Positions 5,157 to 60,724 of a stretch of 64,000 bases of DNA are shown in pieces. Source of the stretch: an uncultured Candidatus Saccharibacteria bacterium (GTDB lineage Bacteria; Patescibacteriota; Minisyncoccia; Phycocordibacterales; PALSA-1337). Location: the NCBI GenBank assembly GCA_964358005.1, contig CAYHNH010000001.1, forward strand, positions 78,775-142,774, in the 5' to 3' direction. Both the position numbers and the translations under genes were made by a program. Within the stretch, counting starts at the first letter, position 1; every line of letters begins with the position of its first letter. The notes beneath the pieces were generated by a model, which searched no databases, was not told the origin of the DNA, and worked only from the letters and a program-made list of their open reading frames with translations.

Positions 5157-5161
5157 TTGTT

Positions 5162-6448
5162 TTATCGTCTTTCAAGGCCTGCTAGCATCGCATCGATCTG
5201 TATCTGCGTAGTCTGTCTAAATTCAGAGTTTCTAATGGATGCAATGACAGAAGATGTGTAATTTTTTATGTTGTTTACGGCAATGGCTTTGTAGCCAGCG
5301 AACTGCGAATCATTCGACACTGTTAAGATATTGGTAACTACAGCTCTTCCAAAGTTTCCACCAGCTACTGCACCCACGGCGGCTAGAGTTCCCCCGCTTA
5401 CTCCACCCCCGAACGCACCTAAGGTGACTCCGCCTATTATAGTTCCAGCTCTGATCTCCATATCCTGTAGTGCCGCATGGAACGGACCTATGGAGGCATC
5501 CCCTATAGCCTTAACAACTTGGCTTTGCGTGTATGCCATAACAGACGCGTAGCGTGCGTAATCATCGATAGACGTTTTTAATATCGGGTCGTTGCTTAAA
5601 GTGTCCAGTTCCTGATTATATTTTGTCCTGAATGCCAATATCATTCTTTGGCAGGTCTCGAATGTGGCGCCGGCCGAGCATTTTATGATCTCATCATTCA
5701 TCACACCGACGGCGACTTTCACGGCAATAATTATTTTCTCTTTTTTTACCTGGTCTAGTAGGTTCAACCTGTCTAAACATAACGCTTCTATAGCCTCATC
5801 ACCCTTCGGTTCCTCGTCATTACAATCAACCCCGCCTGTGAGGGTCGCGACCCTAGCGTTTATCTCATCCGCTTGCCTCTGCAGACCTGCTGCAGTAGCG
5901 CGCGCCACGGTCACATCGGCAAGGATTTTCCTATTTGCTTCTTTTGTCCTGTCCAGGACACTTGCCGTGCTGGTCTCCAACATGGCGAAGAAGTCTGCTG
6001 TAGTAGCGTACCTCTCATAATTTATCTTAAGCGGAGCGACAAGGGTCTTGGGGATGGCGACCAGTCTGGGGTCTATGGTGCGTAATATGAGGTATGAGCA
6101 GAGGACCAGGAGCAGGCCGTAGACTGCGTTCTTGACCTTGTCCAGACCGGTTTTCTTGTCCTGCCAGGAGTCGGTGGTCATATACTGTAGGCCGCCGAAT
6201 ACGATCATGAATACGGCCCCTGCCGCCGCGATAGCTATGATCAGGTTGAAAATATACTGTATATAGTCCTGGAAATTGAATGAGGACCGCCCTTTTGCCA
6301 ACTCATCGGCTGTGCAGGTCACACCGTTTCCGGGGATGCACGGCAACGGCTCTAGAGCGACGTATTGCTGGCTCTGCGCCCAACCGATCGATGGTAGGAT
6401 CATGATGGTCAGCATCAGTACTAGTGAGATTTTTGTTTTTATTGCCAT
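5162..6448 (-). CDS. VirB2/TrbC-like pilin domain fused to a roughly 300-aa coiled-coil and Gly-rich extension
   Basis: Signal peptide MAIKTKISLVLMLTIMILPSIGWAQ, then two closely spaced TM helices (IFNLIIAIAAAGAVFMIVFGG and AVYGLLLVLCSYLIL) joined by a short loop, the T4SS pilin architecture. The C-terminus is Gly-rich (GGVTLGAFGGGVSGGTLAAVGAVAGGNFG). Confidence 0.45.
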   Translation of the reverse strand: MAIKTKISLVLMLTIMILPSIGWAQSQQYVALEPLPCIPGNGVTCTADELAKGRSSFNFQDYIQYIFNLIIAIAAAGAVFMIVFGGLQYMTTDSWQDKKTGLDKVKNAVYGLLLVLCSYLILRTIDPRLVAIPKTLVAPLKINYERYATTADFFAMLETSTASVLDRTKEANRKILADVTVARATAAGLQRQADEINARVATLTGGVDCNDEEPKGDEAIEALCLDRLNLLDQVKKEKIIIAVKVAVGVMNDEIIKCSAGATFETCQRMILAFRTKYNQELDTLSNDPILKTSIDDYARYASVMAYTQSQVVKAIGDASIGPFHAALQDMEIRAGTIIGGVTLGAFGGGVSGGTLAAVGAVAGGNFGRAVVTNILTVSNDSQFAGYKAIAVNNIKNYTSSVIASIRNSEFRQTTQIQIDAMLAGLERR

Positions 6449-6454
6449 GATGAT

Positions 6455-7543
6455 TTAAAAGGTGATAGGCGAGCTGGAAGCTGCGGCAGTGAATACGGCG
6501 CGGAATGCACCATTAGCACTCTGTAGTATCGATGTTTTGTTCGTGATGCGCAGCTCTATCGCGGTAGAGCCGACGGATCCTTCTGGTGCTCTCAGGGTCA
6601 CGGTTTGGTTCGATACGAGCTCCGGCCGCGACCTCCCGTTTATCATCCAGGCCATGTTGAGGTCCCCCAGACCGGTGGCAGGGGCATTGAAGCCGTACGG
6701 GATGGCCAATACACCCGTCTCTCTCTGTGTGTTGAGATACAAGGCATTGTTTATGGCCGTGTCGTACAAGGGGCCGTACAGTGGGTCATTCTTATAGAAT
6801 TTTACGAAGGGAGCAACAGGGTTCACTGAAACAGAACCGGCGCCTTGGGCGCTGCCGTCCCGGGTACTTACGCTGACTGATATGACATATGGTCTGGGTA
6901 TCATGCCGCCAGGTATGATCAGAGATTGTTTTCCATACCCAGAAGATCCTTCGATGATGTCCCCATTCTGCTCCCATCTATAGAGGAGAGATTTAGGGTC
7001 GTATTCGGTGCCAGCTGAATTGGCCAGATGAGGAATAGCAGCTACTTTGACGTCGTTTTGGTATGCGGTCGCGATCTTGCCCTGGAATGTCGGGGGCTTA
7101 TGTCCGGCCGGCTCGACGATCATATCAACTGAGCCGGAAGTCAGGGTGAGCGAGCTCTGCAGTGATTCGCCGGAGGGAGTCACCGCGGAGATGTTGATTG
7201 AGAGCGATTTGCCCAAAGCTGGAGCCTTGACGGTTATGATATTGGATCCTATGCCCTTTTCCACGACCTTACTCGCGACCGACCAAGTAAGGTTGGCTGA
7301 ATATATATCTATGCTGTAACTCCTTGCTGTAATGGTGACGCTCTGACCTGGCGCCGGATTCGAGATAGATGGAGTCAGCTCTATCCCCCCGACAACCGGG
7401 GTGATGCCCTGGGCGCTCACAGAAATAGTCGCGCTGAGTAACAGACCTGATATGACCAATATAATCCTAGTCCAGCTAGTGCGGCGTTGCATTCCTGCCA
7501 TTTTATCATGGAAGTCGGCCGCTGGTTCAGGAGTTATCACCAA
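6455..7543 (-). CDS. Secreted protein with Ig-like/beta-rich repeats (hypothetical)
   Basis: N-terminal signal/anchor (WTRIILVISGLLLSATISVSAQG), then a Ser/Thr/Gly-rich beta-rich sequence. It sits inside the T4SS-like locus. Confidence 0.5.
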   Translation of the reverse strand: MVITPEPAADFHDKMAGMQRRTSWTRIILVISGLLLSATISVSAQGITPVVGGIELTPSISNPAPGQSVTITARSYSIDIYSANLTWSVASKVVEKGIGSNIITVKAPALGKSLSINISAVTPSGESLQSSLTLTSGSVDMIVEPAGHKPPTFQGKIATAYQNDVKVAAIPHLANSAGTEYDPKSLLYRWEQNGDIIEGSSGYGKQSLIIPGGMIPRPYVISVSVSTRDGSAQGAGSVSVNPVAPFVKFYKNDPLYGPLYDTAINNALYLNTQRETGVLAIPYGFNAPATGLGDLNMAWMINGRSRPELVSNQTVTLRAPEGSVGSTAIELRITNKTSILQSANGAFRAVFTAAASSSPITF

Positions 7544-8045
7544 AATGTTGGGTAGGCTGCCTTACCCCACCCACATTCAGAGGTTGCCTGCCAGCAGCGT
7601 GGTTTACACTTTCAGTGTCAGCCCGTCTTATTCCTCCTTGATTGAGCGGTGCATTGCCGGGCACAGACGCTTTTATTCCAGTCTTATCCTCTAGTCTGGA
7701 GAGGACTATGACTACGGCAATTCCTACGATGAGGAGTGGGAACTCTTGAATGACCGGAATCAGCTCCGTGGCCATCGATATAAGAGAAGTGGCGAGGCGC
7801 CGCGCATTCAAGATGCCGTGCCCTTTGAAGTACAGGTATATGCTGACGAGTACCCAGAATACGGGAGCTACGATATCGCCGGCGATAGGGATCAAAGTCA
7901 CGATGTCGGCAACTGTCGCAAAGAACAACAGTCCTACTACTGCTGTATTTTTCAGCCTATAGTTGGTGCCCTTGTCGGTCACCGCCTTAAGGACGGCTCT
8001 TACAGTTTCTTTTTTCTCACTATCGGTCTGTCCTGTCTGAGCCAT
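7527..8045 (-). CDS. Small polytopic membrane protein (hypothetical)
   Basis: 172 aa with 3-4 predicted TM helices (VVGLLFFATVADIVTLIPIAGDIVAPVFWVLVSIYLYF; LLIVGIAVVIVL). It is adjacent to VirB4. Confidence 0.4.
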   Translation of the reverse strand: MAQTGQTDSEKKETVRAVLKAVTDKGTNYRLKNTAVVGLLFFATVADIVTLIPIAGDIVAPVFWVLVSIYLYFKGHGILNARRLATSLISMATELIPVIQEFPLLIVGIAVVIVLSRLEDKTGIKASVPGNAPLNQGGIRRADTESVNHAAGRQPLNVGGVRQPTQHFGDNS

Positions 8046-8069
8046 AATAAACCATTATAGCATCGGCGC

Positions 8070-9887
8070 TTATGCCCCCGCCTGTTCTAGGTCGCGCTTG
8101 GCTTTCTCTATCTCCATGACCTGGGCCGGGTTAGTCGTGATGATCTGGTCCTCCGTGTACGAGGCGCGTATCTGGATAGCCACATGTTTCAGTCCTACGA
8201 AGAATATACCCTCGCCCACATCCGACTCGAGCAGGAGGTACTTCTCTTCGTCTGTCAGATTGAACGTCTGTTGGATATGATCGATGATGGTCGGAGACTG
8301 CTTGAGCAGGATCTGGATCGAGGAGTTGGTGAGGATCGGCAGGCCATAAGGCGATTTTAGGAAGTCGTCCACGTCTTGAGTGATAGTGGCCAAGCCCAGG
8401 AAGTATTTGCGGCCGCGCTTGGCCAAACTGTACAGGAATGAAGCCGTATCTTCGGATTTCATCATCCACCAGGCCTCGTCGATGACCAAGAGCCTCTTCT
8501 TGCGGATCTTTCGGATGGCATTCCATATATAGTGCGTGACTATGTACATGGCAACAGGCTTGAGCTCGTCTTCCATGTCGCGTAGGGAGAAGACGATGAA
8601 TTTGTTGTTAATGTCCACATTCGATGGGCGGTTTATGAAGCCCGACCATGTGCCCTTCGTATACTTGGTCAGTCTCTGGACTAGCGAGTCAGCGCCTTCC
8701 ATGCCAGCCAGCACCAGTTCGAAGTCGGACAATAGCGGGGGCTCGATATTGTGGAAATTTGATTCCGGGGAGATGTCTTTGAGGGCGTATGTCTCGGTGA
8801 TGGCTCGGTCGATGATAGCGTCCTCTTCTTGCGACAAACCACCTAGCATGATGCGGAAGAGTCCCACCAAGTTGATGATATTGGAGCGCAATACATCCGA
8901 GCTAGACTCGTCCTCCCCCACTATAGGCAGGTCGAAAGGATTTATGTGGTGCTCGGAGTTAAGCGAGATATTGAAATATTTTCCGCCGGTGGCTTCTGAC
9001 ATGTACTCGTACTCCTTTTCAGGGTCAATGACTATGACATCGCCATCGAACATGAGTGTGCGCAGGATTTCCAGCTTGGTGCAGTAGGACTTACCGGCGC
9101 CGGCCACCGCGAAGGTCACGGAGTTGTAGTTTGCCAGCGAATAACGGTCAAATAGCACCAGCGAGGAGTTGTGGCGGTTTATCCCATAGAGGATGCCCTT
9201 GTCTGATGTGAGGTCGAATGACACGAACGGAAAGACGCTCGAGAGCGGCGAGGAGTTGAGCTTGGAATGCACCATGAGCTGATCATCACAGATCGGAATG
9301 ACGCTCTTGAACCCAGGTTCCTGCTGGAACAGCGCCGGCTTGAGGTACACGAGCTTTGATTCGAGGATGGATTTTATCTCGGACTCGAGCTTATCGAGCT
9401 CGCTCTCATTGTCGGCAAAGATGGTGAGGTATACTCCGACGTCGAAGAGGTGTTCCTGGGCCTGCATGAGCTGATCGCGCAAGGTTTCTAGGTCCTGATA
9501 TGCGGTGTCTAGGGCCGGGTCGCGGACCAGTCCCTTCTCTTCTCTTCTCGATATCTGGCTCTGTACCTCGGCGACCTTTTTCTGGAAATGGCGCAGGATC
9601 CTGGCCGTATCTACGGGATGTATGAATATGGAGGCATTGAATACCTTGTCGAGATTGATGATGGGGGCGAACCAGCTCTCATCCAGGAAGCGCGGGTAGG
9701 ATATGACGAAGAGGGTCCTGCCGACTTTTTCACCCAGGTTAAGCTCCTTGGGGCTTATCTTCAGTGCCGATGGGGCGATGACGTCCTTGAGCTCCAGGAC
9801 TCCTGCCTGATATATCTCCTCCGGAAGTATGGAGATGATGGGCGATTGCTCGTCTTTTTTGCCGAATAGTTTGGATATGAAGCTCAT
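8070..9887 (-). CDS. virB4: Type IV secretion/conjugation ATPase VirB4/TrbE family, C-terminal 605-aa portion including the ATPase domain
   Basis: Walker A AVAGAGKS and Walker B RLLVIDEAWWM are present, plus a VirB4-like linker/membrane-proximal region (VIAPSALKISPKELNLGEKVGRTLFVISYPRFLDESWF). Confidence 0.85.
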   Translation of the reverse strand: MSFISKLFGKKDEQSPIISILPEEIYQAGVLELKDVIAPSALKISPKELNLGEKVGRTLFVISYPRFLDESWFAPIINLDKVFNASIFIHPVDTARILRHFQKKVAEVQSQISRREEKGLVRDPALDTAYQDLETLRDQLMQAQEHLFDVGVYLTIFADNESELDKLESEIKSILESKLVYLKPALFQQEPGFKSVIPICDDQLMVHSKLNSSPLSSVFPFVSFDLTSDKGILYGINRHNSSLVLFDRYSLANYNSVTFAVAGAGKSYCTKLEILRTLMFDGDVIVIDPEKEYEYMSEATGGKYFNISLNSEHHINPFDLPIVGEDESSSDVLRSNIINLVGLFRIMLGGLSQEEDAIIDRAITETYALKDISPESNFHNIEPPLLSDFELVLAGMEGADSLVQRLTKYTKGTWSGFINRPSNVDINNKFIVFSLRDMEDELKPVAMYIVTHYIWNAIRKIRKKRLLVIDEAWWMMKSEDTASFLYSLAKRGRKYFLGLATITQDVDDFLKSPYGLPILTNSSIQILLKQSPTIIDHIQQTFNLTDEEKYLLLESDVGEGIFFVGLKHVAIQIRASYTEDQIITTNPAQVMEIEKAKRDLEQAGA

Positions 9888-10525
9888 GTTAGTTGTATCG
9901 GCTTCTCTGTTTCGCCTGGGTTAAAGATCTTGTAGAACAATTCTACCACTTCCTCGGTGCCAAGCTCGGCCGTGCGGATGCCACAGCGCACCAGACCCTG
10001 CTCTACTACGGCCACTCTTTGCTCTAGCTGGCTCTTGTATTCCTGGAATTTCTCCTCGGCGGAGGCGGTCTCCTTTTGGGTGGCTTCCCTCTGGGGCATC
10101 ATCCTGGATATGGGGTTTTTGCCGGCGCCCATGATCGGCGGGTCGTAGGGCACGACCACAAAAAAGCCCTTGGACATGATGTTGGTTGTTTCGACGAACG
10201 TTTTTATGAATTCTATGTACTCTCGGACCTGTATCTTCATGAGCTCAGTAGGCTGTTCCTTGTATCTGTCCTCGAGGAGAGCTATGTACGGCCTGATATC
10301 TAGCTTTTTCGACTGTATGTATATCTGTATCGAGAAATCGAGCGAGTTCAGGAAGTTCTGGAACTGCAAAAGTATGGCGCTCTGTTCGTCTGAGGACTTC
10401 AGGGCGAAGTTTAGCGAAGTCGCGAGGACGAGCGCGCGCATGCCGCCGCTCTTCAAGATGACGACCCCATCGCGTATCTCCTGGATGGGAACGAAGTTCT
10501 GGGTTGTCTGGGTTTGTGAAGCCAT
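9884..10525 (-). CDS. VirB4 N-terminal domain encoded as a separate 213-aa ORF
   Basis: FVPIQEIRDGVVILKSGGMRALVLATSLNFALKSSDEQSAILLQFQNFLNSLDFSIQIYIQSKK matches the N-terminal domain pattern of Gram-positive-type VirB4 (PrgJ/TcpF/Orf16-like). Its stop overlaps the downstream start as ATGA at 9884..9887. Confidence 0.6.
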   Translation of the reverse strand: MASQTQTTQNFVPIQEIRDGVVILKSGGMRALVLATSLNFALKSSDEQSAILLQFQNFLNSLDFSIQIYIQSKKLDIRPYIALLEDRYKEQPTELMKIQVREYIEFIKTFVETTNIMSKGFFVVVPYDPPIMGAGKNPISRMMPQREATQKETASAEEKFQEYKSQLEQRVAVVEQGLVRCGIRTAELGTEEVVELFYKIFNPGETEKPIQLT

Positions 10526-10959
10526 CAGCGTTGGTCTTTGTTAGAGTATATGCTCTCCTTTATATCTAGGCTCCATGAGAGGTCCTTCAGTTTGCTGTCC
10601 GAGATCTTGGGGACCATTATCGAGGCGTAATTCTTGGCCTGCTTCACTGCCTCCGCGGTCGTCGGTGGCTGGGGTTTGGGCTCTTTCTTCCATATATATA
10701 GTTTGGCTCCGAGCCAGAACCTTATTGCCGCTTCTAGCACTCCGATGAGCGGCTTGTTGTTCACCTTGTAGAAGGCTAAGGAGAGCGATAGCGCCATGAC
10801 TATCACTATAGGCAGTAATGACAGGATTATGCTGTTCAGCATGAAGTAGATCACGAATGAGAGCCCTGCTCCTCCAGCGACGTAGATGAATTGCTTCAAC
10901 GTCAGTGGGCCAAAGATCTTGTCCTCTACTTCTATGAATTGAGGTACCTGAAATCGCAT
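10525..10959 (-). CDS. PrgI/VirB3-like small membrane protein
   Basis: 144 aa. The N-terminus MRFQVPQFIEVEDKIFGPLTLKQFIYVAGGAGLSFVIYF has the PrgI-family pattern (F.EKI.G.LT.RQ), followed by two TM helices. It sits immediately upstream of VirB4. Confidence 0.5.
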   Translation of the reverse strand: MRFQVPQFIEVEDKIFGPLTLKQFIYVAGGAGLSFVIYFMLNSIILSLLPIVIVMALSLSLAFYKVNNKPLIGVLEAAIRFWLGAKLYIWKKEPKPQPPTTAEAVKQAKNYASIMVPKISDSKLKDLSWSLDIKESIYSNKDQR

Positions 10960-11008
10960 CTAGGATATTATAGCGACAAGCGAGGACCAAAGCGAGCGCT
11001 TGCGCTCA

Positions 11009-11626
11009 CTAGACCAATGGTTCCCTGTAGGGGTCGCCGCTCGTCGAAGCTCCTGGTACTGCCGGGCTCGGCTTCTGTGTCACTTTTTCGGTAGGAACGG
11101 CGGTCGAACTGCGTAGGAGCTGTTCGACGAGGGATTCCCTTTTCTGTTCTGGTGCCGTGGTTGGTGCCTGCGGTGCGCTTCTAGGGGCCGTCGGTTGCGG
11201 GTTTTCGAGGCCTTCCAGCACGTCTTTGCGGTTTATCGGTACGATTGAGCCGTCATCAGCCTGGGGATTCCCAACGGCTGGCGTTTTCTCTATCGTGAAG
11301 TCGCCGGCCTGTTCGAGTGCCTTGTTGCCTTCGGTACTTGTAAGCTCGGTACCCTGTAGTTCCTCACGGAATACCTTTATGAGTTCTTCGTTCACGCTTT
11401 GGGTTATGCCATCTGCTGTTTCTGAATCAATTTTAAGTAAGTCGGTTATGTTCTGGGTGAAGTCTGCTGGTTGGCTCAAGCCCAAAAGGATCTTCTTTAT
11501 CTCTACGTCTAGCTCTCCCAATTGATCAAGGTTAAGACCGAACTTTTCACCAACGGATTCGACTGCCGTGTATATCCGGGGGTCCCGAGACAAGTTTTTT
11601 ATGCCGCCTATTGTTTGTGGGTTCAT
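11009..11626 (-). CDS. Acidic hypothetical protein within the T4SS-like locus
   Basis: A 205-aa ORF on the same strand, between the VirB6-like and PrgI-like genes. No recognisable motif. Confidence 0.4.
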   Translation of the reverse strand: MNPQTIGGIKNLSRDPRIYTAVESVGEKFGLNLDQLGELDVEIKKILLGLSQPADFTQNITDLLKIDSETADGITQSVNEELIKVFREELQGTELTSTEGNKALEQAGDFTIEKTPAVGNPQADDGSIVPINRKDVLEGLENPQPTAPRSAPQAPTTAPEQKRESLVEQLLRSSTAVPTEKVTQKPSPAVPGASTSGDPYREPLV

Positions 11627-11633
11627 ATTTTTA

Positions 11634-13571
11634 TCATAACCAATCGCTATTTGAAGGCTTGTTCACAAAGCCTTCTGCTTTGTGTGGGAGTCTCGGTCCT
11701 GCCGGACCAACTCGCCAGCCACTAATCTTGTTGCCGATGGCCTTCTTCAGAACAGTGTCGATGCCTTCATCCCCCATCGCCTTTAGCTGTCCTGCCGTAA
11801 GGTGCTCTATCACTTTTTCATCCTCAAGGAGAGATGGTCCAGGTACCCTGGAGGTGACATCCAGGAGGTCCTTTCCGTTCATTTCGCCCGTCATGTGCTT
11901 TATTTGCTCGGTCTCTTCCCTCGTTACGGAATCCTCAAGGGCCTTGCCTCTGAGATCCAATATCTTGTTCTTATCTTCATCAGAAATGTCCTCAGATTTT
12001 GCGATCGAGGCAAAATCTTCTCGGCTGGCGTGCTTGAGTATCTGCATGACTGCGTCATCGTCCTTTTCTTTTAGTTTTGCCGTTATCGCGCCAGTCTTTT
12101 CCTTGGTGCTCATGACGCTGACTACCGTCTTCAGGTCGGCGTGAGTGCCAGTACGAGCCATGACAGCATTGAGTTTGCTATTGAAGTTGTTCTTCCTATC
12201 GATGATCTTGCCCTCCTTGCTAACCTCCTTCTGCTCCTTCTGGCGTTCCTCATGCGATCTCATGCCACCCATCTTGCTCTTGGCCAGAGCGCCGGTGGTA
12301 GCTCCTCGTATGTCGCGTGCCAGGAGAGTGTTCCCGAGTTTTGTACCCGCCATTGCCTTGTCTAGCCTTGCTGCCCCAGCTCCGATTGTCTTGGTACCAG
12401 CATAGCCACCAATAGTGCTCCAGACCTTGCCGGCACCGAACTTATCTGCAGCCTTATTTAGTATCGATATAGTCTTGCCCGCTATGCTGGCCGCCGCAAC
12501 CAAGGGAAGGTTGAGCAGGAAAATGACGATGGTGGCATTGACTGCTAGGAGCATGTATTCTCTGTACCAAGGAGCCGCGCTCACGGCTGCCGTCGTGCTT
12601 TGCGGGTCGAACATCGGCGTGGTCGTGAGGACATTCAAGGCCAGATACATGAGTAGCAGGTACACGGGCATGAACAGCAGCATGCTCTTGTAGAGATCCC
12701 ACCACTTGCCAGCGTAGGTTTTCACCTCTGGGGCCAAGAAAGAGATGAAATATACTGGCGAGAATGCCAAGAGGAACAGCAGGATGACGAATCGGGCGAT
12801 GAAGGCAAATGCCGCGGCGGCAAAGCTTATCGTAGCCACGAATTCTATGATGATGCCTATTATACCGACCATGATTATTTTGAAAGTATCGTTGAACAGT
12901 CCAGTGGTACCGTTGCTCGATCCTAGCCCGGATGCCGCGTTGCTGGCCGAGAAGTCATAGAGCTTGGTTATCTTCAGTGAGTTCATGAATATATCGGAAA
13001 GGCCGCCGTCTCGTATGAGAACGCCGTTTTCGAGGCCAATCTGCTCGTTGCCGAGAGCCATCCCACCGGTTGCCGTATTCGCTGGAGCGATAGCGTTGTA
13101 GAGCTGCATGGAAACTATGTTCGACGCGTCTATGCCGAGACCCGTGAGGAAGAAGCTGAAGTTGATCAGGATGCCGGCCATGACGATGTTCTTTATGAGC
13201 TCCTTGAACTTCGGATCCTGCAGTCCGAGGATGAGCTGGACGGAGGCGTAGAGCAGGAAGAAGATTATGAATATGCCGCTTATGTCCCGGATCGCCTTCC
13301 AGGTCGTATATATGGCTGGCGCATTGTCTACGAAAGCTTTTATATTGAGCGTGAGCCTGATCGAAACGTTGAGGAGGAAGCCGGCGATGGCCAATATCCA
13401 GCTCATTATCTTTAGTCCTGTGTTGAAGAACATGGCGACGAGCTCATTGAAGGTGCCGTATGCGATATTGAAGAGGCTCCACTGCGCATGTGCCTGGTGG
13501 GTGGTCGCCACGAAGACAACAAATGCCAGGAGTAGGACGGCGCCGATTTTTATGAGGTGTTTCTTCTTCAT
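11634..13571 (-). CDS. VirB6/TrbL-like polytopic membrane protein with a long hydrophilic C-terminal tail
   Basis: Likely start MKKKHLIKIGAVLLLAFVVFV (signal/anchor), then at least 6 TM helices and a charged C-terminal region of about 250 aa. Architecture and position match VirB6-family channel proteins. Confidence 0.55.
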   Translation of the reverse strand: MKKKHLIKIGAVLLLAFVVFVATTHQAHAQWSLFNIAYGTFNELVAMFFNTGLKIMSWILAIAGFLLNVSIRLTLNIKAFVDNAPAIYTTWKAIRDISGIFIIFFLLYASVQLILGLQDPKFKELIKNIVMAGILINFSFFLTGLGIDASNIVSMQLYNAIAPANTATGGMALGNEQIGLENGVLIRDGGLSDIFMNSLKITKLYDFSASNAASGLGSSNGTTGLFNDTFKIIMVGIIGIIIEFVATISFAAAAFAFIARFVILLFLLAFSPVYFISFLAPEVKTYAGKWWDLYKSMLLFMPVYLLLMYLALNVLTTTPMFDPQSTTAAVSAAPWYREYMLLAVNATIVIFLLNLPLVAAASIAGKTISILNKAADKFGAGKVWSTIGGYAGTKTIGAGAARLDKAMAGTKLGNTLLARDIRGATTGALAKSKMGGMRSHEERQKEQKEVSKEGKIIDRKNNFNSKLNAVMARTGTHADLKTVVSVMSTKEKTGAITAKLKEKDDDAVMQILKHASREDFASIAKSEDISDEDKNKILDLRGKALEDSVTREETEQIKHMTGEMNGKDLLDVTSRVPGPSLLEDEKVIEHLTAGQLKAMGDEGIDTVLKKAIGNKISGWRVGPAGPRLPHKAEGFVNKPSNSDWL

Positions 13572-13575
13572 GTTT

Positions 13576-15096
13576 TTACAGGCGGTCACATGCTGTCTGG
13601 AATGCGGCGGCATCGGCGGTGAATGTTACTACGCGACCTCTGACATAGTTCAGGTCTGACTGGGAGGAGGTAACCAATGCCGCGACGTTCGATCCAGATA
13701 GGAATTGGCTGAGGCCATTGACCTGAGTGTTTATGTTTTGAGCTACCTGATCGATCGGATTATTTCCAATTACAGACGGTGGTGTGGATAGACGAATGAC
13801 TATGTAATCTCGCCTACTGGTCAATTCGTTAATAAAACTGCCCACCTCGTATTGTTGTGTCGCTATCAGGCTGAGGTTTGTCTGGGCGTCTTGTATCTTC
13901 TGTTGGGTCTGGCTGATGCCTAGTTTTCCTGTAAAGCACGCCTGTGCTTGGCTGTATTTGGTGTAGGCTTCGTTTACCAGGACGATGGCGTCATCGTAGT
14001 TTCTCTTAGCCATGCTTAAAGCACCCGCATCTGGATTGGAGCCATCGCCTGTCCCTCCTGTTGGGGTTAACGTGTTCGCATATACCTGTTGTAGGTACAA
14101 TCTCCCGCTTCCAGGTCCAGATGATCCGGAGCTCATAGCGTAAAGTCCTCTTTGCAGAGTCTTGGTTACAAGTTGCGATACGAGCGCGCTCACCACAGCG
14201 TTTATGTTGTCAGCGAGCTCGAGCTGTCTTGCCGGAGACTGGAGAGAGCTGTTCAATGATGCTTCTATGACAGAGCCAGGTGTTTTGTATTGGCACTTCT
14301 GCAGGTGGCCGTCCGGTCCGTCCTTGTAGGCTACACCGCCCGAGGAAGTCCCCCTGTAATTTCCGGCCTCTTCATCGGATATCCCGGCGTCTTCACATGA
14401 TTCCCATGAGAGAAAGCCTTTTCCCTGTATAAGGTCGCTCTGCACAAAGGCTTTCTTTTGTGAGACAGCGAACATCTGGTCGCTCCTTGCCATAAGGATG
14501 GTTCCTATCGGATTGTTCTGGTCCTCTGTTGTTAACGCAATGAAGGCTGGCCAGCCACCCTGCTTGAAATCTCCTTTTATGAAGCCGTCTATGCTCGCGC
14601 CGTTGACGTAACTGCCCTGATAGTTGTCTATGACGGTGCTTAGAGTGCAGGTATATTTTCGACGATTTGGCATACCGTCACCGGGGGTTTCAAGCTGTTG
14701 GATAGCTAGGGCGACCTTTATGTCTACGCTCCAAGGCGAGCACAGCCTTTTGAGCGGGCCGCTGTCTGAGATGAATTGACCGGTGAGCTGGTCAGCCGCG
14801 TCTAGGAAAAATCCTTCAGGATTAGTGAGGAATGAAGGCTTGCCCTTGAAGCCAGTGTTGATCCAATTAACCACGGACACTGTCATCTGATTCAGGACCT
14901 GCTTGGCTGCCATGTAGGCTAGTCTATCGCCGAGGAAATCCTTCCAGTTTCTCGCCTGATTAAAAAAGGCGTTGGCGATACCTGTCGGGCTAGTATCGCC
15001 GACCTGGAGGGTGGCGAGCTGCGCGTTTGCGATCTGCGAATTGGTTGTAAAAATAATACAGGAAATAATCAAAAACACCGTTGCGAGGTATTTCAT
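13576..15096 (-). CDS. Secreted hypothetical protein (likely start MKYLATVFLIISCIIFTTNSQIANAQ)
   Basis: Signal peptide, then a soluble Gly/Ser/Thr-rich domain with several Cys. Same strand, between the VirB6-like gene and rsmA. Confidence 0.5.
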   Translation of the reverse strand: MKYLATVFLIISCIIFTTNSQIANAQLATLQVGDTSPTGIANAFFNQARNWKDFLGDRLAYMAAKQVLNQMTVSVVNWINTGFKGKPSFLTNPEGFFLDAADQLTGQFISDSGPLKRLCSPWSVDIKVALAIQQLETPGDGMPNRRKYTCTLSTVIDNYQGSYVNGASIDGFIKGDFKQGGWPAFIALTTEDQNNPIGTILMARSDQMFAVSQKKAFVQSDLIQGKGFLSWESCEDAGISDEEAGNYRGTSSGGVAYKDGPDGHLQKCQYKTPGSVIEASLNSSLQSPARQLELADNINAVVSALVSQLVTKTLQRGLYAMSSGSSGPGSGRLYLQQVYANTLTPTGGTGDGSNPDAGALSMAKRNYDDAIVLVNEAYTKYSQAQACFTGKLGISQTQQKIQDAQTNLSLIATQQYEVGSFINELTSRRDYIVIRLSTPPSVIGNNPIDQVAQNINTQVNGLSQFLSGSNVAALVTSSQSDLNYVRGRVVTFTADAAAFQTACDRL

Positions 15097-15136
15097 GGGT
15101 GCACGGGGTTTTCTGTTTTGTATATTTACCATGTGT

Positions 15137-15976
15137 TTACGAGCCTATTCGGACTCCTGCCATCAGTAGATAGTCGTTAACCTCATAAAGAAGGCTGGCT
15201 ATATTCTGCATCGCTGCCACCCCGAGGCTGATTCCAGCTAATCCGCTTACAGGGTCTGTGTCTATGCGCCTTATCGCTTCAGCGTTGTGAATCGCCAGAC
15301 TTACGTTGTTCATCAGCTCCAGATGATATTTGGCAAGAGGGATCGGGGTATTTATAGTCTTGAGCGAAGCCAGGAGACTCTTGTAGTCTTCGATGATGGG
15401 GTCGATCTTTTTTAAGATGAGCATGTCGTTGGTCGTAAGCGCCTCCGTAGCTATCTGTGCCTCATTCTCTTTCGGCATGTGAGAACCAAATGTATTTGTT
15501 AAGACTTTGCCATAGTCATTCAATGCTACTGTGGTGCTCGCCGATAGTTTGATGTCTGAGATCGAAAATGTTTTAGGTAAAGGCAGTTTTGCTAGCGCTT
15601 CGGCCGTGACTTGACCCATGATGCTTGCAACGGAATCGGCGTCCGCGATAAGCCCTGATTGTTGTAACTCTTCATATTTGGTGAGGAATGATCGTCCGAG
15701 AAGGTCGGTGGCTGTAAGTTTTTCCGGTTCATTCGGCGTGGCCTTTGCCGGGCTCTTAAAAGTCGTGCTAGTAGAGTTTTTGTCTATGAATTGTTGCCGC
15801 CAGTTCGTATTTTCTGGAAGAGCTTCCGGCGTCGCCAGTGATATGCCGACGAGCTCGCTGCCTATCGGTGCTTTTATTCCTGATGAATCACCGCGGACGT
15901 AGAAAGCCACGCCTCCCACAGCGAGGATGCATACGACAAGAATCACGACGGTTTGCTTGCGTGGGTATACGGCCAT
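15137..15976 (-). CDS. Membrane-anchored hypothetical protein
   Basis: Single N-terminal TM helix (VVILVVCILAVGGVAFYV) and an extracytoplasmic alpha-rich domain. It is the first gene of the T4SS-like block. Confidence 0.5.
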   Translation of the reverse strand: MAVYPRKQTVVILVVCILAVGGVAFYVRGDSSGIKAPIGSELVGISLATPEALPENTNWRQQFIDKNSTSTTFKSPAKATPNEPEKLTATDLLGRSFLTKYEELQQSGLIADADSVASIMGQVTAEALAKLPLPKTFSISDIKLSASTTVALNDYGKVLTNTFGSHMPKENEAQIATEALTTNDMLILKKIDPIIEDYKSLLASLKTINTPIPLAKYHLELMNNVSLAIHNAEAIRRIDTDPVSGLAGISLGVAAMQNIASLLYEVNDYLLMAGVRIGS

Positions 15977-16023
15977 ATTCCTGGGGGAATTATAGCAAGA
16001 TTGGCTTGAAATAAGGCCGAAAG

Positions 16024-16812
16024 TTATTCACACAACAAGTCGAACCACTGCTTGAGAGTGAGATCTTCAGCCCGGACCTTCGGGTTGAGGTAAATTTTTG
16101 CAAATTTTTGATCGATTTTGTCCAAGTCCATCTCTTTCAGGTTGCTTATCAGGAGTTTTCTCTTATGCGCAAACCCGGCCTTTACGATATCGAAGAATCT
16201 CCTTATTTCTAGGCCTTTTTCGGTAAACAAGCGGTCAGATATGTCCTCGATGGACAGTATCGCCGAGTCCACGTTTGGCGGCGGATTGAATGCTCCCCTT
16301 GGGACCTTCGCGGCTATACGGGGCGTCCCGAAGGCCTTGACCGAGATCGAGAGGATGCTTTCCTTGCCGTTTCTCGCAACGATCCTATCAGCCACTTCCT
16401 TCTGGACTAATAGCACCATCCTGTTCGGTCGTGGACCGTATTCTAGGAATGATTCCAGAATAGCTCCTGTTATGTAGTAAGGAATATTCGCGACCACTGC
16501 GTATCCTCCCTCTTCGAAGCCCATCTTTGCTCGGTCCGTCTCCAGGATATCCGCAGAGTGGACCGTCAGGTTGCCCGAGGCGATCTCGGAAGCGAATTTT
16601 TCCCTGAGCAGGACGTTTGCGCGGTCATCTTTTTCCACAGCTATCACTTTTACTCCGCTTTTTAGCAGTGCACCGGTTAGCACACCTGTACCCGGACCGA
16701 TCTCGAGCACAACCTCCCCATTTTTCAGGTTGGCCGTCTCGATGATCTTCGCCAGCGCTGAAGGCGAATTGAGAAAATGTTGTCCCAGAGATTTTTTTGG
16801 TTGAAGATGCAT
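16024..16812 (-). CDS. rsmA: 16S rRNA (adenine1518-N6/adenine1519-N6)-dimethyltransferase
   Basis: LGQHFLNSPSALAKII, VLEIGPGTGVLT (SAM motif) and ANIPYYIT (NIPY substrate motif). Confidence 0.9.
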   Translation of the reverse strand: MHLQPKKSLGQHFLNSPSALAKIIETANLKNGEVVLEIGPGTGVLTGALLKSGVKVIAVEKDDRANVLLREKFASEIASGNLTVHSADILETDRAKMGFEEGGYAVVANIPYYITGAILESFLEYGPRPNRMVLLVQKEVADRIVARNGKESILSISVKAFGTPRIAAKVPRGAFNPPPNVDSAILSIEDISDRLFTEKGLEIRRFFDIVKAGFAHKRKLLISNLKEMDLDKIDQKFAKIYLNPKVRAEDLTLKQWFDLLCE

Positions 16813-16819
16813 GTGCGTG

Positions 16820-17566
16820 TTAAAAATCTATGAAAATAGCCTTGGCTCCAGTCGGTTTGGGAGGGATGCTGTCCTCGATGAGGTTCTTTTCGATGTCCTC
16901 GATGAACTCTGAAGGGGTATTGACCCTCTCGGTGCCGTAGATTTTCCTGACGAGCGAGTAGCTCAAGTGGATTTTTTTCCGAGCACGGGTCAGAGCTACA
17001 TAGAACAGTCTCCGTTCCTCCTCTGCCTCGTGCTGGCTCATGTCCCCGTCATCGGAATGCTTGAATGGGAAAAGGTCTTGTTCCAGTCCGGCTATGAACA
17101 CGTGGTCGAACTCGAGGCCTTTGGCCGCGTGCACGGTCATCAGTTTGACTGAGTCGGTATTCTCGTTGAGCTCGTCCTGATCGGTGGCGAGCGCCGCGTT
17201 CGTCAGGAATGCCTCGATGCCTTCCTCTGGCTTCAGGTGGTCGTACTGCGATGCTACGGAGACGAGCTCACGGACGTTAAGCAGGCGATCCTCATCCTCC
17301 ATATCTCCAGAAAGCAAAATCTTCTCAATGCCGCTTTCCTGGATGATGAAACGGATGACATCCGATGCCTTCTTTTCCTTTATCTCCTCGCGTATGTCAG
17401 AGAGGAGCTTCCTGAAATCGGCTATCTTGTCGCGCATGCCCGGAGGGAGAGAGTCCTCTTCCCCGCCGACGATCTTCGCTAGCGTCACCTTGCCGATGCC
17501 TCGAGGTGGCACGTTTATTATACGGCTAATGTCAGCCACGCTTTCTGGATTTAAGGATGCCTTCAC
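16820..17566 (-). CDS. uvrD: UvrD/PcrA-family helicase, C-terminal fragment (2B/2A domains); starts at a GTG three nt after an in-frame TAA
   Basis: ISRIINVPPRGIGKVTLAKI, VKLMTVHAAKGLEFDHVFIAGLEQDLFP and RRLFYVALTRARKKIHLSY are the conserved helicase motifs V/VI region. Confidence 0.7.
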   Translation of the reverse strand: MKASLNPESVADISRIINVPPRGIGKVTLAKIVGGEEDSLPPGMRDKIADFRKLLSDIREEIKEKKASDVIRFIIQESGIEKILLSGDMEDEDRLLNVRELVSVASQYDHLKPEEGIEAFLTNAALATDQDELNENTDSVKLMTVHAAKGLEFDHVFIAGLEQDLFPFKHSDDGDMSQHEAEEERRLFYVALTRARKKIHLSYSLVRKIYGTERVNTPSEFIEDIEKNLIEDSIPPKPTGAKAIFIDF

Positions 17567-17569
17567 GTA

Positions 17570-18751
17570 TTATAGGACGTCCTTCACCTCCTTCCTTTCG
17601 AAGAATTTCACCCCCAGCAATTGGTATGGGATGTTCTTCTTGATGAAGGCTTCTTCGAGCACGCGGGATTGGAAGTTTGTCCGGTATAGGACGGCGATCT
17701 CCCTAGGAGACAGGCCGGTCTCGATGAGATCCCGGGCGGAGTCAGCTATGGCTCGGGCTTCCTCGGTTTCAGAGTAGGAAGCCGAGAGGGATATCTTCTC
17801 ACCGGCAACATTGTCGGTATACAGGGTCTTCTTCTTGCGCATGGAGTTCTTCTCGATCACGGCATTGGCTGCCGCAAGAATAGTTTTCGTCGAGCGATAG
17901 TTCTTTTCGAGAGTGATCACGGTGGTGTTGGGATAGTCCTTTTCGAAATGGAGGATATTCTCTATCGTCGCCCCGCGCCAGCTGTAGATATTCTGGTCCG
18001 CGTCCCCGACGGCGCAGATATTGTTATGCGCTGCGGCTAGATGGTTGGCGATCTTGTATTGGACCTTGTTTGTGTCCTGGTATTCGTCTATGTGTATGTA
18101 CTTCCAGACCTTGGCGTAGCGTTCCCTGATATCCGCCCTCTCCAACAAGTGGGCCGTCTTTGCCAAGAGGTCATCGAAGTCTAGAGCTTTTTCCTTGAAT
18201 AGGATGGCGTCATATCTTTCCCACACCTCTGCTGTCATCTCCTGCATAAAATCCCTGGCCGCGTCCTTGTACTGGAGCGGATTATGCCCATCGCCCTTGG
18301 CTCGGGAGATGAGATTGAGGAATAGTCCCGGGTCGTATTTTTTCGGGTCGATGTTGCGCGAGAGCATGGCTTCTTTGACTGCCCGCTTCGAGTCGCCGCG
18401 ATCATATATCGTAAAATACCTGGTGAGGCCGAGCAGGTGGGCGTTTTCTTTTATTATGTGCACGCCGAGGGCGTGGAAAGTGCTTACGAACGGCTTTTCA
18501 TTGATGGAGATTGGGCGGTTTATTCCGTTGTCCACCGAAAGCAGGCTTGTCACCCTGTCGCGCATTTCCTTGGCCGCCTTGTTGGTGAAAGTTATTGCCA
18601 ATATCTCATGCGGAGCTACCCCGGACCGGACCAGATTGAGGATTCTATGGGCTATGACCCTAGTTTTGCCCGAACCAGCACCAGCGACTATGAGCAAGGG
18701 GCCGTTTTTGGTCTCGACGGCTCTTTTCTGGGCTTCGTTGAGAGTGTTCAC
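17570..18751 (-). CDS. uvrD: UvrD/PcrA-family helicase, N-terminal fragment (1A/1B domains), ending at an in-frame TAA
   Basis: LLIVAGAGSGKTRVIAHR (Walker A), ILAITFTNKAAKEM, HIDEYQDTN (motif II) and the KFFERKEVKDVL end. It is in frame with the downstream fragment. Confidence 0.7.
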   Translation of the reverse strand: MNTLNEAQKRAVETKNGPLLIVAGAGSGKTRVIAHRILNLVRSGVAPHEILAITFTNKAAKEMRDRVTSLLSVDNGINRPISINEKPFVSTFHALGVHIIKENAHLLGLTRYFTIYDRGDSKRAVKEAMLSRNIDPKKYDPGLFLNLISRAKGDGHNPLQYKDAARDFMQEMTAEVWERYDAILFKEKALDFDDLLAKTAHLLERADIRERYAKVWKYIHIDEYQDTNKVQYKIANHLAAAHNNICAVGDADQNIYSWRGATIENILHFEKDYPNTTVITLEKNYRSTKTILAAANAVIEKNSMRKKKTLYTDNVAGEKISLSASYSETEEARAIADSARDLIETGLSPREIAVLYRTNFQSRVLEEAFIKKNIPYQLLGVKFFERKEVKDVL

Positions 18752-18945
18752 CGGGACATACTACCATAAAGACCATGTTCATATCGCGTTTGACTTCGGG
18801 TCAAAAAATGATATCCTTGGGCCACATATCCAATCTTTATGTTTTTGACATTCACGGCTCTATATAGCCATGAATACATAGGGACAGGATCACAGGACGG
18901 CTGATATTACCTTTACGGATGCTTGACAGGAGGGGCACATCCATT

Positions 18946-20037
18946 ATGCACTCAAACCAGTCCGAAAAAAATCAATACCCTGCCTTTTTTAGGTTCAAGC
19001 GCCTCATCCCGGCATTGGTCATTTCAGTGGCCGTCACATCTTCCATATTTGTCTTTTCCAAGACCGCCAATGCCGGTCTTGTGTCTTTTTTGAACATGCT
19101 CATGGGTAATCAGCAAGCTTCTGCCAAGCTCATGATCCCGAGAGCCGCGGATTCGCAAATCCTGCCCACTATCGTCCTCATGGCTGCCGGCAACCCGATC
19201 CTTCTGGCCCAGGCATCCCAGACCCCGCCTATAGAGGGCGAGACTACCCTTTCGCCGGACATAGCGCGCATGAATGCGACTTCAACCGAAGAGATAAACA
19301 CCCAGATCAGCATATATGTGGTCAGACCGGGTGACACCATATCATCTGTGGCAAAGATGTTCAGCGTGTCTGTGAGCACAGTCCTCTGGGCGAATGACCT
19401 AACGAGCAAATCCCTGCTACAGCCGGGACAGACTCTGGTCATACTTCCAGTTACGGGCATAACTCACAAGGTTATGAGTGGAGACACCATCCAAAGCATC
19501 GCAAAGAAATACAATGCCGACATAGAGGACATCCTCAATTACAATGATCGGACATTGGCCTCGGTTCTGAAGGCTGGAGAAGAGATATTGATACCGAACG
19601 CGGAGATTCCTACGCTGACGGTTTCGCCGGCACGCAATCCTGCCAAGCCTGCAAGCGGACCTCTGATATCAGGCTACTATTCATGCCCTTTGCCAGGGTC
19701 CAAAGTCACCCAGCGTTTGCATGGACATAACGGAGTCGATCTAGGAGCTCCTAGCGGCACGCCCATACGGGCGGCAGCGGGCGGGACGGTCATCATCAAT
19801 CGCTCCAACGGTGCATGGAACGGCGGATACGGGAATTTCATCGTAGTGCTCCATTCTAACGGGACACAGAGTCTCTATTCCCACATGTCCAGGAGCACAG
19901 TCCAGGCTGGAGAGGTCGTCTCGAAGAATCAGACTATCGGCTATGTTGGCATGACCGGCCTTACGACGGGTCCACACCTACATCTCGAAATCCGCGGCGC
20001 TCAGAATCCATTCACTGATCAGGGTCTTTGCCGGTAG
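18946..20037 (+). CDS. LysM-domain (x2) M23-family murein endopeptidase
   Basis: Two LysM repeats (YVVRPGDTISSVAKMFSVSVSTVLWAN and HKVMSGDTIQSIAKKYNADIEDILNYN). The C-terminal M23 motifs are HNGVDLGAPSGTPIRAAAGGTV and YVGMTGLTTGPHLHLEI. The start is taken at MHSNQSEK, preceded by GGAGG. Confidence 0.8.
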   Translation: MHSNQSEKNQYPAFFRFKRLIPALVISVAVTSSIFVFSKTANAGLVSFLNMLMGNQQASAKLMIPRAADSQILPTIVLMAAGNPILLAQASQTPPIEGETTLSPDIARMNATSTEEINTQISIYVVRPGDTISSVAKMFSVSVSTVLWANDLTSKSLLQPGQTLVILPVTGITHKVMSGDTIQSIAKKYNADIEDILNYNDRTLASVLKAGEEILIPNAEIPTLTVSPARNPAKPASGPLISGYYSCPLPGSKVTQRLHGHNGVDLGAPSGTPIRAAAGGTVIINRSNGAWNGGYGNFIVVLHSNGTQSLYSHMSRSTVQAGEVVSKNQTIGYVGMTGLTTGPHLHLEIRGAQNPFTDQGLCR

Positions 20038-21568
20038 AGCAGTCGTCCATTTTTTGCCGGTATTGGAGCGCTTCCAATACATGCCTCTGCTGGATGACCT
20101 CTACGCAGGCGAGATCTGCTAGGGTTCTGGCCACTTTTATTACCCTGTGGAATGAACGACCAGACAATGACAGTTTTTGTCCGGCGACTTTGGCAGTTTT
20201 GCGCGCATTATCAGTGATCTGGACGCATCGTTCGATATCATCGGCGTCCATTTCGCTATTGAATCTTTTTTTCAGGCCGAAACTCCTGAATCTGTCTAGT
20301 TGGATTTTTCTGGCGTTCGCTACGCGGGCTTTTATCGCGGCAGAAGGCTCCGACAGCGAGCATTTCTCGGCCAGCTTCTCGTAGTCTATCTTGCTCACGT
20401 TCACCCATATATCTAGTCTGTCCAATATCGGGCCAGAGATCCTCCTTCTGTAGGTTCTCACCAGGTGCTCTCTGCAGTCACAGCCATTATTGCGGCCTTT
20501 GCCGCAGGGGCAGGGATTCATCGAGGCGACGAGGATACATTGCGCGGGGAATGTCACACTGCCTCTCGCGCGCGAGACCGTGATGGACCTTTCTTCCAGA
20601 GGCTGACGGAGAGCTTCTATGACGGTCCGGTCGAATTCGGGGAATTCATCCATGAAAAGGATGCCTCTATGTGCCAGGGTTATCTCTCCTGGATGTGGGA
20701 AGGCTCCGCCACCGACGATGGAGGGATATGAGGCGGTATGATGCGGCGCCCGGAAGGGTGGATGCCTCACAAGGCCGCTCCTTAGCACGTTTGCGGCAGA
20801 GTGTATGCCGGTCACTTCTATGGCTTCTTCCTGCGACAGCGTCGGCAGGATGGAGGGGAGGCTCTGAGCGAGCATAGTTTTGCCGGTGCCCGCAGGCCCG
20901 AACATCAGGATGTTGTGTGCGCCAGCCGCAGCTATCTCCAGTCCGCGCTTGGCCATCTCATTTCCACGAATTGTGCGCATGTCTGGTGCTTGGAGGTTGC
21001 CCGCTGCTTGCTCGTCGATTTCTCGCGGCTTCAGTGGCTCGATGGACGATCTGCCATTCAGGGCTGATATGATCTCCGAGAGCGAATCTATAGCGAATAC
21101 CTCTATATCCGCGTACAGCGAGGCCTCCTCAGAGTTGTCTTTGGGTATGAAAACAGTTTTGAAGCCGCGGCTTTTTGCCTGGCACATGAGCGGCAGTATG
21201 CCGCTTACGGGTCTGACCTTTCCTTCCAGAGAAAGCTCGCCTAGGAATAAACTAGCCTCCGACCCATCCTGGATATCGCCGCTCGCCATGAGATATGAGA
21301 CCGCGATGGCCAAGTCGAAGGAAGGGCCTTCCTTACGCGCGTGAGCCGGAGCCAGTGAGATCACCACTTTTTGGTTCTTTTGCTTGGGTGAGACGTATCC
21401 TGAATTTTTGATGGCCGCGGAAACCCGGTCCTTGGCCTCTTCTACTGCCCGATCGCCCAAGCCGACTATCGAGACAGCATTAAGGCCGTTCGAGATATCG
21501 ACTTCTACGGTGACGACCTCTATTGAGAGGCCGACTAGTTGCGCGCTGTAGCATTTTGCTATGCTCAC
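20012..21568 (-). CDS. comM: Mg-chelatase-like AAA+ ATPase, YifB/ComM family
   Basis: N-terminal Lon-like domain, Walker A MFGPAGTGKTMLAQ, Walker B ILFMDEFPEF and a C4 cluster (CPCGKGRNNGCDC). Confidence 0.85.
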   Translation of the reverse strand: MSIAKCYSAQLVGLSIEVVTVEVDISNGLNAVSIVGLGDRAVEEAKDRVSAAIKNSGYVSPKQKNQKVVISLAPAHARKEGPSFDLAIAVSYLMASGDIQDGSEASLFLGELSLEGKVRPVSGILPLMCQAKSRGFKTVFIPKDNSEEASLYADIEVFAIDSLSEIISALNGRSSIEPLKPREIDEQAAGNLQAPDMRTIRGNEMAKRGLEIAAAGAHNILMFGPAGTGKTMLAQSLPSILPTLSQEEAIEVTGIHSAANVLRSGLVRHPPFRAPHHTASYPSIVGGGAFPHPGEITLAHRGILFMDEFPEFDRTVIEALRQPLEERSITVSRARGSVTFPAQCILVASMNPCPCGKGRNNGCDCREHLVRTYRRRISGPILDRLDIWVNVSKIDYEKLAEKCSLSEPSAAIKARVANARKIQLDRFRSFGLKKRFNSEMDADDIERCVQITDNARKTAKVAGQKLSLSGRSFHRVIKVARTLADLACVEVIQQRHVLEALQYRQKMDDCSTGKDPDQ

Positions 21569-26671: not shown

Positions 26672-26727
26672 GGGCGATATATTAGCACTAAAGCCGTTTT
26701 TCGGCAACATTTTGCTATAATAATGCC

Positions 26728-40308: not shown

Positions 40309-40566
40309 TGTGTATTGTTAATTCTTATAAATTTGGTCTCGGCGCCGACGCGTCGAGCTTGCGAACTACGGAGTTATTATACTTTAAGCCATTTTTTAGG
40401 CAATGGGCACGAAAGTTAGCTGTGGATTGACTGTGGATTGCCAAAAAAGATGAAATATGGGCCTATTTTAGAGAAAAAATGGCTATTTCTGGTGATGAGC
40501 ATGCCAAACAAATAAAAAGCCGCACAGCTCACTGTACGGCGGAAAGAACTGGGGGACTCATCCCCA

Positions 40567-41124: not shown

Positions 41125-41295
41125 GAGCTAATCACACAGCTGCTAAGGAGATTCGTGGCGAAAACCGATCGCCAGGGCCTGCCTCGGGCAAATCCGGGTC
41201 GGGTGACCCGGGGTTTACGAGATCGGACTATACCGTTGCGGGACAGTGAGGGAATCACACCCTCTTCATCGTAAACGCTGTATGTAAGGGCCAGT
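41125..41295 (-). ncRNA. Candidate cobalamin (B12) riboswitch in the 5' leader of the membrane-protein gene
   Basis: The minus strand reads ...GAAGAGGGUGUGAUUCCCUCACUGUCCCGCAACGGUAUAGUCCG...CCCCGGGUCACCCGACCCGG...GCCCGAGGCAGGCCCUGG. This matches, from memory, the cobalamin-riboswitch core (GGUG.GAAUCC...CUG.CCCGCAAC.GUAA) and a downstream CCCGAG.CAGG segment. Confidence 0.35.
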
Positions 41296-56237: not shown

Positions 56238-56238
56238 T

Positions 56239-59216: not shown

Positions 59217-59220
59217 TTAT

Positions 59221-60211: not shown

Positions 60212-60217
60212 GCTCCG

Positions 60218-60688: not shown

Positions 60689-60724
60689 GTATCGATTTTA
60701 GCATGCCATGCTAGAATTGTGGGC

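Follow-up and report, generated by a model that had tools for sequence, protein, structure and literature searches.

We analysed a stretch of 64,000 nucleotides (nt) of contig CAYHNH010000001.1 (positions 78,775 to 142,774 of the forward strand), hereafter the window, in which a helicase gene of the PcrA/UvrD family on the minus strand is interrupted by a single in-frame TAA at 17570-17572. An earlier note on this DNA, made from the sequence alone, had described two in-frame halves of 393 and 248 amino acids (aa), a description that holds in full. The two open reading frames (ORFs) share one reading frame, and joined they form one complete PcrA/UvrD-family helicase. Codon by codon, the minus strand at the site reads AAG GAC GTC CTA TAA TAC GTG AAG GCA, which translates as K D V L stop Y V K A. 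The parts of the gene are as follows.

18751..17573 (..17570 with the stop included), minus strand: N-terminal ORF of pcrA/uvrD, 393 aa, GTG start at 18751; covers 1A, 1B, the beginning of 2A and the opening residues of the helix that follows, with Walker A and motifs II-IV
17572..17570, minus strand: in-frame TAA, standing where relatives have a nearly invariant Ser
17566..17564, minus strand: GTG, 3 nt (one codon, TAC) past the TAA; Val in relatives and a candidate re-initiation start
17566..16820, minus strand: C-terminal ORF of pcrA/uvrD, 248 aa, with a normal TAA stop at 16822..16820; covers what is left of 2B and the later part of 2A, including motifs V and VI
Native junction between the 393-aa and 248-aa ORFs: UAAUACGUG

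The interrupted pcrA/uvrD gene

The family assignment made in the earlier note is borne out by Pfam searches and by comparison with proteins of known structure. The UvrD-helicase domain (PF00580) is complete in the N-terminal ORF (profile positions 1-271 of 271, E 2e-82), and UvrD_C (PF13361) is divided between the two ORFs, with profile positions 1-116 in the N-terminal and 211-348 in the C-terminal one (E 1e-37). The helicase motifs can be read directly in the translation, including Walker A (AGAGSGKT), motif II (DEYQD), motif V (TVHAAKGLEF) and motif VI (YVALTRARK). Over its whole length the joined protein can be aligned with PcrA of Geobacillus stearothermophilus (1PJR, E 5e-150); it also matches UvrD of Escherichia coli (2IS1, E 4e-114), and Rep (1UAA) likewise aligns from end to end. 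It therefore resembles the SF1A 3'-5' DNA helicases PcrA (1PJR, 3PJR), UvrD and Rep in its end-to-end match, in the possession of all helicase motifs and in both Pfam domains. It differs from the G. stearothermophilus PcrA in that a TAA interrupts the window allele where PcrA has Ala397 (in KDILAYLRV) and in that the gene is shorter by ~80 aa; a C-terminal Tudor-like extension was not detected in the window protein by the Pfam scan. Judged by sequence, the gene is an ordinary PcrA/UvrD family member in every feature that could be tested, save for the interruption of this allele.

In an AlphaFold2 model of the closest relative, which is 94% identical (mean pLDDT 74), the stop site lies in the middle of a helix spanning residues 389-402. 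By the domain limits of Rep and UvrD, the site is ~15 residues past the beginning of domain 2B. Neither piece contains Ser394 or the invariant Tyr395.

Sister assemblies, relatives and the age of the stop

The window matches contigs from the Hainich groundwater well H41 (0.1 µm filters). According to the study behind these data (PMC8672522), each filter replicate was sequenced with Illumina 2x150 reads and went through metaSPAdes assembly on its own. The contig of replicate R1 was found by exact look-up of the two halves, those of R2 and R3 via the stop-independent neighbours KsgA and LysM peptidase. The R1 contig (Hain_H41_01um_R1_2692 in ENA, 15.8 kb, coverage 3) carries TAA like the window, and its sole mismatch to the window is at 15406. 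The contigs of R2 (R2_12262, coverage 3, window 13024-18350) and R3 (R3_21555, coverage 5, window 17557-21484) each show a single mismatch, at 17571, where both have a C on the coding strand and thus TCA (Ser). Their pcrA ORFs read through the site (...KDVLSYVKA...), and over ~8.5 kb R2 and R3 together differ from the window nowhere else. R3_7057, another R3 contig, shows no difference from the window but ends before reaching the stop site, as do two single-run Logan contigs.

Since R2 and R3 carry exactly TCA, the stop is a single C-to-A change on the coding strand (TCA to TAA), as the earlier note had proposed. It is unfixed in its own population, because, of the three replicate assemblies of this well and sampling campaign, two have the intact TCA as their consensus. 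A sense codon at 17570-17572, which the earlier note would have read as the mark of an assembly error in an otherwise ordinary uvrD, is thus found for part of the population, R1 and the window having TAA.

At 15406, R1 has G where the window, R2 and R3 have T, which changes Ile191 to Leu (I191L) in a 279-aa hypothetical protein (15137-15976, minus strand); the difference is either micro-diversity or a low-coverage error. Because they differ at this position, the window and R1 are two different assemblies. Moreover, the cluster record of the two pcrA-half proteins lists a 205-kb contig, so that the window probably does not derive from any of the 3-5x replicate assemblies.

The best homologues of the joined protein are PcrA/UvrD proteins of Patescibacteria (Paceibacteria, 'Taylorbacteria'). 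The best 120 are all uninterrupted and ~640-720 aa long, except for one 579-aa partial sequence. At the stop site the closest relative (P0001, 94% aa identity) has TCC and two 81% relatives have TCG, all of them Ser codons. Aligned over 32 relatives, this Ser shows at least 90% conservation and the Tyr after it no variation. The stop therefore replaces a conserved Ser, or Ala in the case of PcrA, in line with the earlier reading. Full-length orthologues at 94%, 81% and 77% identity share the neighbours ComM, LysM-M23 peptidase, pcrA and rsmA/ksgA, and the order LysM-M23 peptidase, pcrA, rsmA is the same in the window as in PcrA orthologues across Paceibacteria. The GTG at 17566 is already there in relatives and has not evolved as a restart codon.

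Searches with the C-terminal half returned many short PcrA pieces. Those that were inspected reflect contig edges, an N-gap, frameshifts or other start positions: the C-terminal piece of one relative (L087) is explained by a scaffold N-gap and that of another (L091) by a contig edge. In three further relatives (L088, L089 and L090) pcrA is frameshifted in assemblies that look error-prone, and in L089 so is rsmA; one contig among these three is named contig_..._np1212. They illustrate how many of the 'split' helicases in databases stem from faulty assembly. The remaining inspected pieces begin elsewhere, some of them apparently through gene-caller starts at a nearby Met, Val or Leu codon. Separately, one relative's C-terminal PcrA piece (P0135, on a 31.5-kb NCBI contig) has an unrelated, low-complexity-looking insertion of ~60 aa inside domain 2B. 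Joint Genome Institute (JGI) metagenome contigs were scanned with a degenerate DNA pattern that combines this peptide context with a stop (or Trp) codon at the site, and gave 0 matches; the pattern itself matches the window, and its relaxed form matches the relatives. We therefore rejected a recurrent or conserved split at this site, given that no relative is split there, that the short pieces inspected are explained otherwise and that the JGI scan came back empty. On this evidence the split is a one-off.

Both halves of the gene are otherwise intact, as the earlier note had stated. Compared with the closest relative, the ratio of nonsynonymous to synonymous substitution rates (dN/dS) is 0.038 in the N-terminal and 0.034 in the C-terminal half, and neither half has indels or a second lesion. 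When an 81% relative serves as outgroup, private aa changes number 10 in the window lineage and 14 in that of the closest relative; for the C-terminal half alone the counts are 3 and 5. The synonymous divergence (dS) between the window and the closest relative is ~0.8, so that a neutrally evolving C-terminal half would be expected to collect ~226 nonsynonymous changes over the whole branch, against 3 observed. By this comparison the stop should be very young, roughly no older than ~3% of the branch. For a mutation this young, the absence of decay carries no information on function.

Genetic code, gene starts and other features of the window

Of the 66 ORFs in the window, 26 close with TAA, more than with any other stop codon. 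In TIM and PilB this TAA coincides with the end of the Pfam profile, and rsmA and pcrA also end at TAA where their homologues end. No interruption occurs in DnaA, a VirB4/TraG-like ATPase, ComM, PNPase, the CCA-adding enzyme, RNase Y, trigger factor, NusA, PilB or PilC; of ~65 genes, pcrA alone is broken. A survey of every pair of long ORFs parted by a single in-frame stop, made over the whole window, yielded no further split gene; the other pairs are all distinct genes (integrase/ExoIII-like, TIM/PGK, ClpP/RsmE and H+-PPase/unknown). No suppressor was found among the four tRNAs of the window, all of which are ordinary. From its TAA usage, its intact conserved genes and its tRNAs it follows that the genetic code is standard; code reassignment, which the earlier note had considered unlikely, is ruled out, and read-through is rejected as well. 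UAA followed by U is moreover a strong termination context in E. coli. No second UvrD-like gene lies within the window, and the earlier note was right to call this its only UvrD-family helicase. In the search beyond the window for its own genome or a UvrD paralogue, genome contigs gave only relatives with at most 69% identity, and an exact pattern had no match in JGI metagenomes.

Three further features bear on how the gene and its neighbour may be expressed.

18758..18763, minus strand: -10-like box TAGTAT, ending 6 nt ahead of the pcrA GTG start, a spacing typical of the putatively leaderless genes in the window
17569..17574, minus strand: perfect TATAAT hexamer created by the stop (cTATAATac), ending 2 nt before the GTG
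16024..16812, minus strand: rsmA/ksgA (RrnaAD), the downstream neighbour, which starts 7 nt past the pcrA stop and is kept as neighbour in relatives

A Shine-Dalgarno (SD)-like motif stands ahead of 1 of 65 starts, compared with 10% at random positions. A -10-like box of the form TAnnnT ends precisely 6 nt ahead of the start codon in 11 genes; counting boxes that end at any distance of 3-16 nt, 30 of the 65 starts have one (background 13%); examples are 2766-2771, 26716-26721, 8054-8059 (minus strand) and the box of pcrA itself. The box at 6 nt and the near absence of SD motifs suggest that the mRNAs of the window are mostly leaderless. The SD-poor starts seen here agree with the reported absence of the anti-SD motif from a subgroup of Parcubacteria (PMC9297842); on leaderless translation in Patescibacteria itself we found no direct report in the literature, only this one on the lost motif.

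Spacers of -4 to +10 nt occur at 11 of 41 same-strand junctions, with the pcrA break counted among them. Such junctions lie at 61484-61489, 56235-56241, 16812-16822, 15132-15139 and 59216-59223, and include, with gaps of 0-7 nt between stop and start, the TAA/ATG of TIM and PGK, the TAA-T-ATG of PilB and PilC, and the pcrA TAA followed after 7 nt by the ATG of rsmA. This arrangement suggests that internal cistrons are translated by termination-reinitiation, which in E. coli and Haloferax is effective at such short spacings and fades beyond 10-20 nt (PMC10666635). Upstream of rsmA/ksgA there is neither an SD motif nor a promoter box at the typical 6-nt spacing; in view of this and of the 7-nt gap, rsmA/ksgA is probably translationally coupled to pcrA. 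The pcrA break resembles the junctions of coupled operon genes studied previously (Huber et al. 2019, PMC6728339; PMC10666635) in that a stop is followed by a start within a few nt in the absence of an SD, but differs from them in that it arose by accident inside a gene and has GUG as its start. Since its 3-nt spacer fits the range both of the native SD-less junctions and of the tested species, re-initiation at the GUG 3 nt past the UAA is plausible in this genome.

Two other routes to expression of the C-terminal ORF were rejected. The TATAAT made by the stop is unlikely to be a new internal promoter, as it lies 2 nt from the GTG, compared with 6 nt in the leaderless genes here, and is too close for a leaderless mRNA. 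The hexamer is not avoided inside genes of the window (21 observed, 25 expected), and we judge its creation coincidental. For an SD-driven internal start, the candidate motifs GGAGG and AAGGA, 20 and 13 nt upstream of the GTG, are also present in the closest relative, and SD motifs are unused in this genome.

Several features elsewhere in the window were noted in passing. The gene dnaA lies at 1154-2494 (minus strand), and the window may adjoin the replication origin; cumulative GC skew climbs steadily over the window, with no turning point. A long same-strand cluster at 3891-15132 (minus strand) contains a protein with a T4SS-pilin domain, a TraG/VirB4-like P-loop ATPase (8070-9887) and several large proteins with no Pfam match, and in an 81% relative the corresponding place is taken by PrgI- and TraC-like genes; the cluster resembles a machinery for type IV secretion or a conjugation-like process. 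Between 32612 and 37704, three paralogous Peripla_BP_6 periplasmic-binding-protein genes are interleaved with two TrmB-family regulators. An AdoCbl-II (cobalamin) riboswitch is matched in Rfam at 41214-41275 (minus strand; 39.5 bits, gathering score 36.5), upstream of an ORF at ~40529-41115 (minus strand) that has no Pfam match. Finally, the TIM ORF at 60245-61486 (plus strand) is 413 aa long as listed and its TIM domain begins at residue 165; its true start is probably much further downstream, or else its 5' part overlaps opposite-strand genes at 59720-60688.

Interpretation of the TAA allele

The earlier note had left three candidates: a very recent nonsense mutation, a sequencing error, or a split enzyme that restarts at the GTG. 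The first fits best, with the amendment that the mutation has not gone to fixation, TCA being present in R2 and R3. Most probably, the window holds a real, extremely young and unfixed nonsense allele of an ordinary single-chain PcrA/UvrD, from a Paceibacteria (Parcubacteria) population in Hainich well H41, and the allele is likely to be loss-of-function or strongly weakened. If, as we infer, the variant is present in cells beyond the assemblies, translation in TAA carriers would end after residue 393 at UAA-U. The resulting N-terminal fragment would be devoid of motifs V and VI and incapable of helicase work alone. Ribosomes may then restart at the GUG 3 nt further on, which would yield the 248-aa C-terminal fragment and would keep the downstream rsmA/ksgA translated. 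Because the break falls in the middle of a helix and because the invariant Tyr395, together with Ser394, is missing from both pieces, function is probably lost in TAA carriers: the two fragments would make no working enzyme, and part of the population would carry a null or strongly weakened allele.

A number of points weigh against this interpretation. The replicate assemblies have a coverage of 3-5x only, a range in which consensus errors occur, and R1 has its private I191L. The TAA of the window and that of R1 are not independent if the read set behind the window shares reads with R1. Moreover, the alleles were read from assembly consensus sequences, which give no allele frequencies. As to function, its loss is something that we infer, and it is somewhat unexpected for a null allele to reach visible frequency where dN/dS is ~0.04; strong constraint combined with visible frequency would fit a still-functional allele better.

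The first group of these points leads to the possibility that all cells have TCA and that the TAA of R1 and of the window assembly arose through faulty sequencing or assembly, or through a consensus call on very few reads. Two of three replicate assemblies, among them the best-covered one (5x), indeed read TCA, coverage is low, and R1 has another private difference at 15406. The change is also a G-to-T on the plus strand, a class that oxidative damage during library preparation produces as well. However, damage errors are scattered and rarely become consensus, and the same TAA base occurs in two assemblies that differ at 15406 and hence are not one assembly. The 205-kb contig on record for the two proteins implies far more coverage than the 3x of R1, and pooled H41 reads from the three replicates would by coverage favour the TCA path, yet the window has TAA. 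We therefore consider an artefact unlikely.

No more probable is a working two-piece helicase, in which the TAA allele would be nearly neutral and the 393-aa and 248-aa chains would assemble into active PcrA after restart at the GUG. The short spacer, within the range of the native SD-less junctions and of efficient termination-reinitiation in tested species, speaks for it, as do the two undamaged halves and the visible frequency of the allele in a strongly constrained gene. In addition, PcrA stands in the PDB as more than one separate chain in entries 2PJR and 1QHH, presumably as a result of proteolytic nicking, which would show that a cut PcrA can stay assembled. Undamaged halves are, however, uninformative for a mutation this young, and the break in mid-helix leaves both pieces without Ser394 and Tyr395. 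The layout is like that of naturally split genes whose products reassemble, in so far as two adjacent in-frame ORFs cover one enzyme. True split genes are conserved across relatives and usually broken at domain boundaries or loops; the pcrA split, by contrast, is limited to some assemblies of one population, with no split relative and an empty JGI scan, lies within a helix and costs an invariant residue. A split gene as an evolved state was therefore rejected, and what is plausible in the earlier suggestion is the re-initiation itself. Taking the nonsense allele and a still-functional allele jointly, we regard a real polymorphism as highly probable.

Two other explanations find little room. 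In one, the TAA would be read as sense, through reassignment, a suppressor tRNA or programmed read-through, and the full-length protein would be made. Nothing favours this beyond the fact that both halves are in frame and intact, and the use of TAA as the commonest terminator, at the ends of TIM, PilB, rsmA and pcrA, the lack of an in-frame stop in any other conserved gene, the ordinary tRNAs of the window and the plain TCA of the sister allele make it extremely improbable. In the other, pcrA would be dispensable and decaying in this lineage as an old pseudogene, as the one disabling mutation might suggest. This is hardly credible, as purifying selection is evident in both halves, lineage-specific changes are not in excess, indels and further lesions are absent, an intact allele exists one base away over ~8.5 kb and the stop dates to at most ~3% of the branch.

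We thus return to a young nonsense allele segregating in the population. It resembles known segregating nonsense alleles, young pseudogenes and mutator alleles of repair genes in that one base disables a conserved repair gene, and it shares with segregating loss-of-function alleles the intact allele in the same population and the absence of secondary decay; it differs from them in that the pcrA case was read from assembly consensus sequences. The kind of event is already known: it is an ordinary nonsense single-nucleotide polymorphism and introduces no new gene type, code or mechanism. It is conceivable, though we think it improbable, that the TAA allele persists at appreciable frequency because routine SD-less restart shortly after stops makes it a tolerated two-piece PcrA with rsmA kept expressed, or that a PcrA-null form is kept for some time as a mutator or hyper-recombination variant.

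For the use of such data, the case is a caution: a metagenome-assembled genome froze one allele of a polymorphic site in a population that also carries the intact gene. Public records hold the helicase as two proteins of 393 and 248 aa, which is likely a mis-annotation to be corrected. For the biology of the organism, an ultra-small groundwater bacterium, the allele would mean that a helicase of repair and replication, though strongly conserved, has loss-of-function variants standing in the population. Leaderless, SD-less starts and very short junctions could soften the polar effects of nonsense mutations, and a tolerated two-piece PcrA or a mutator, if true, would be a natural example of SD-less translation buffering such mutations.

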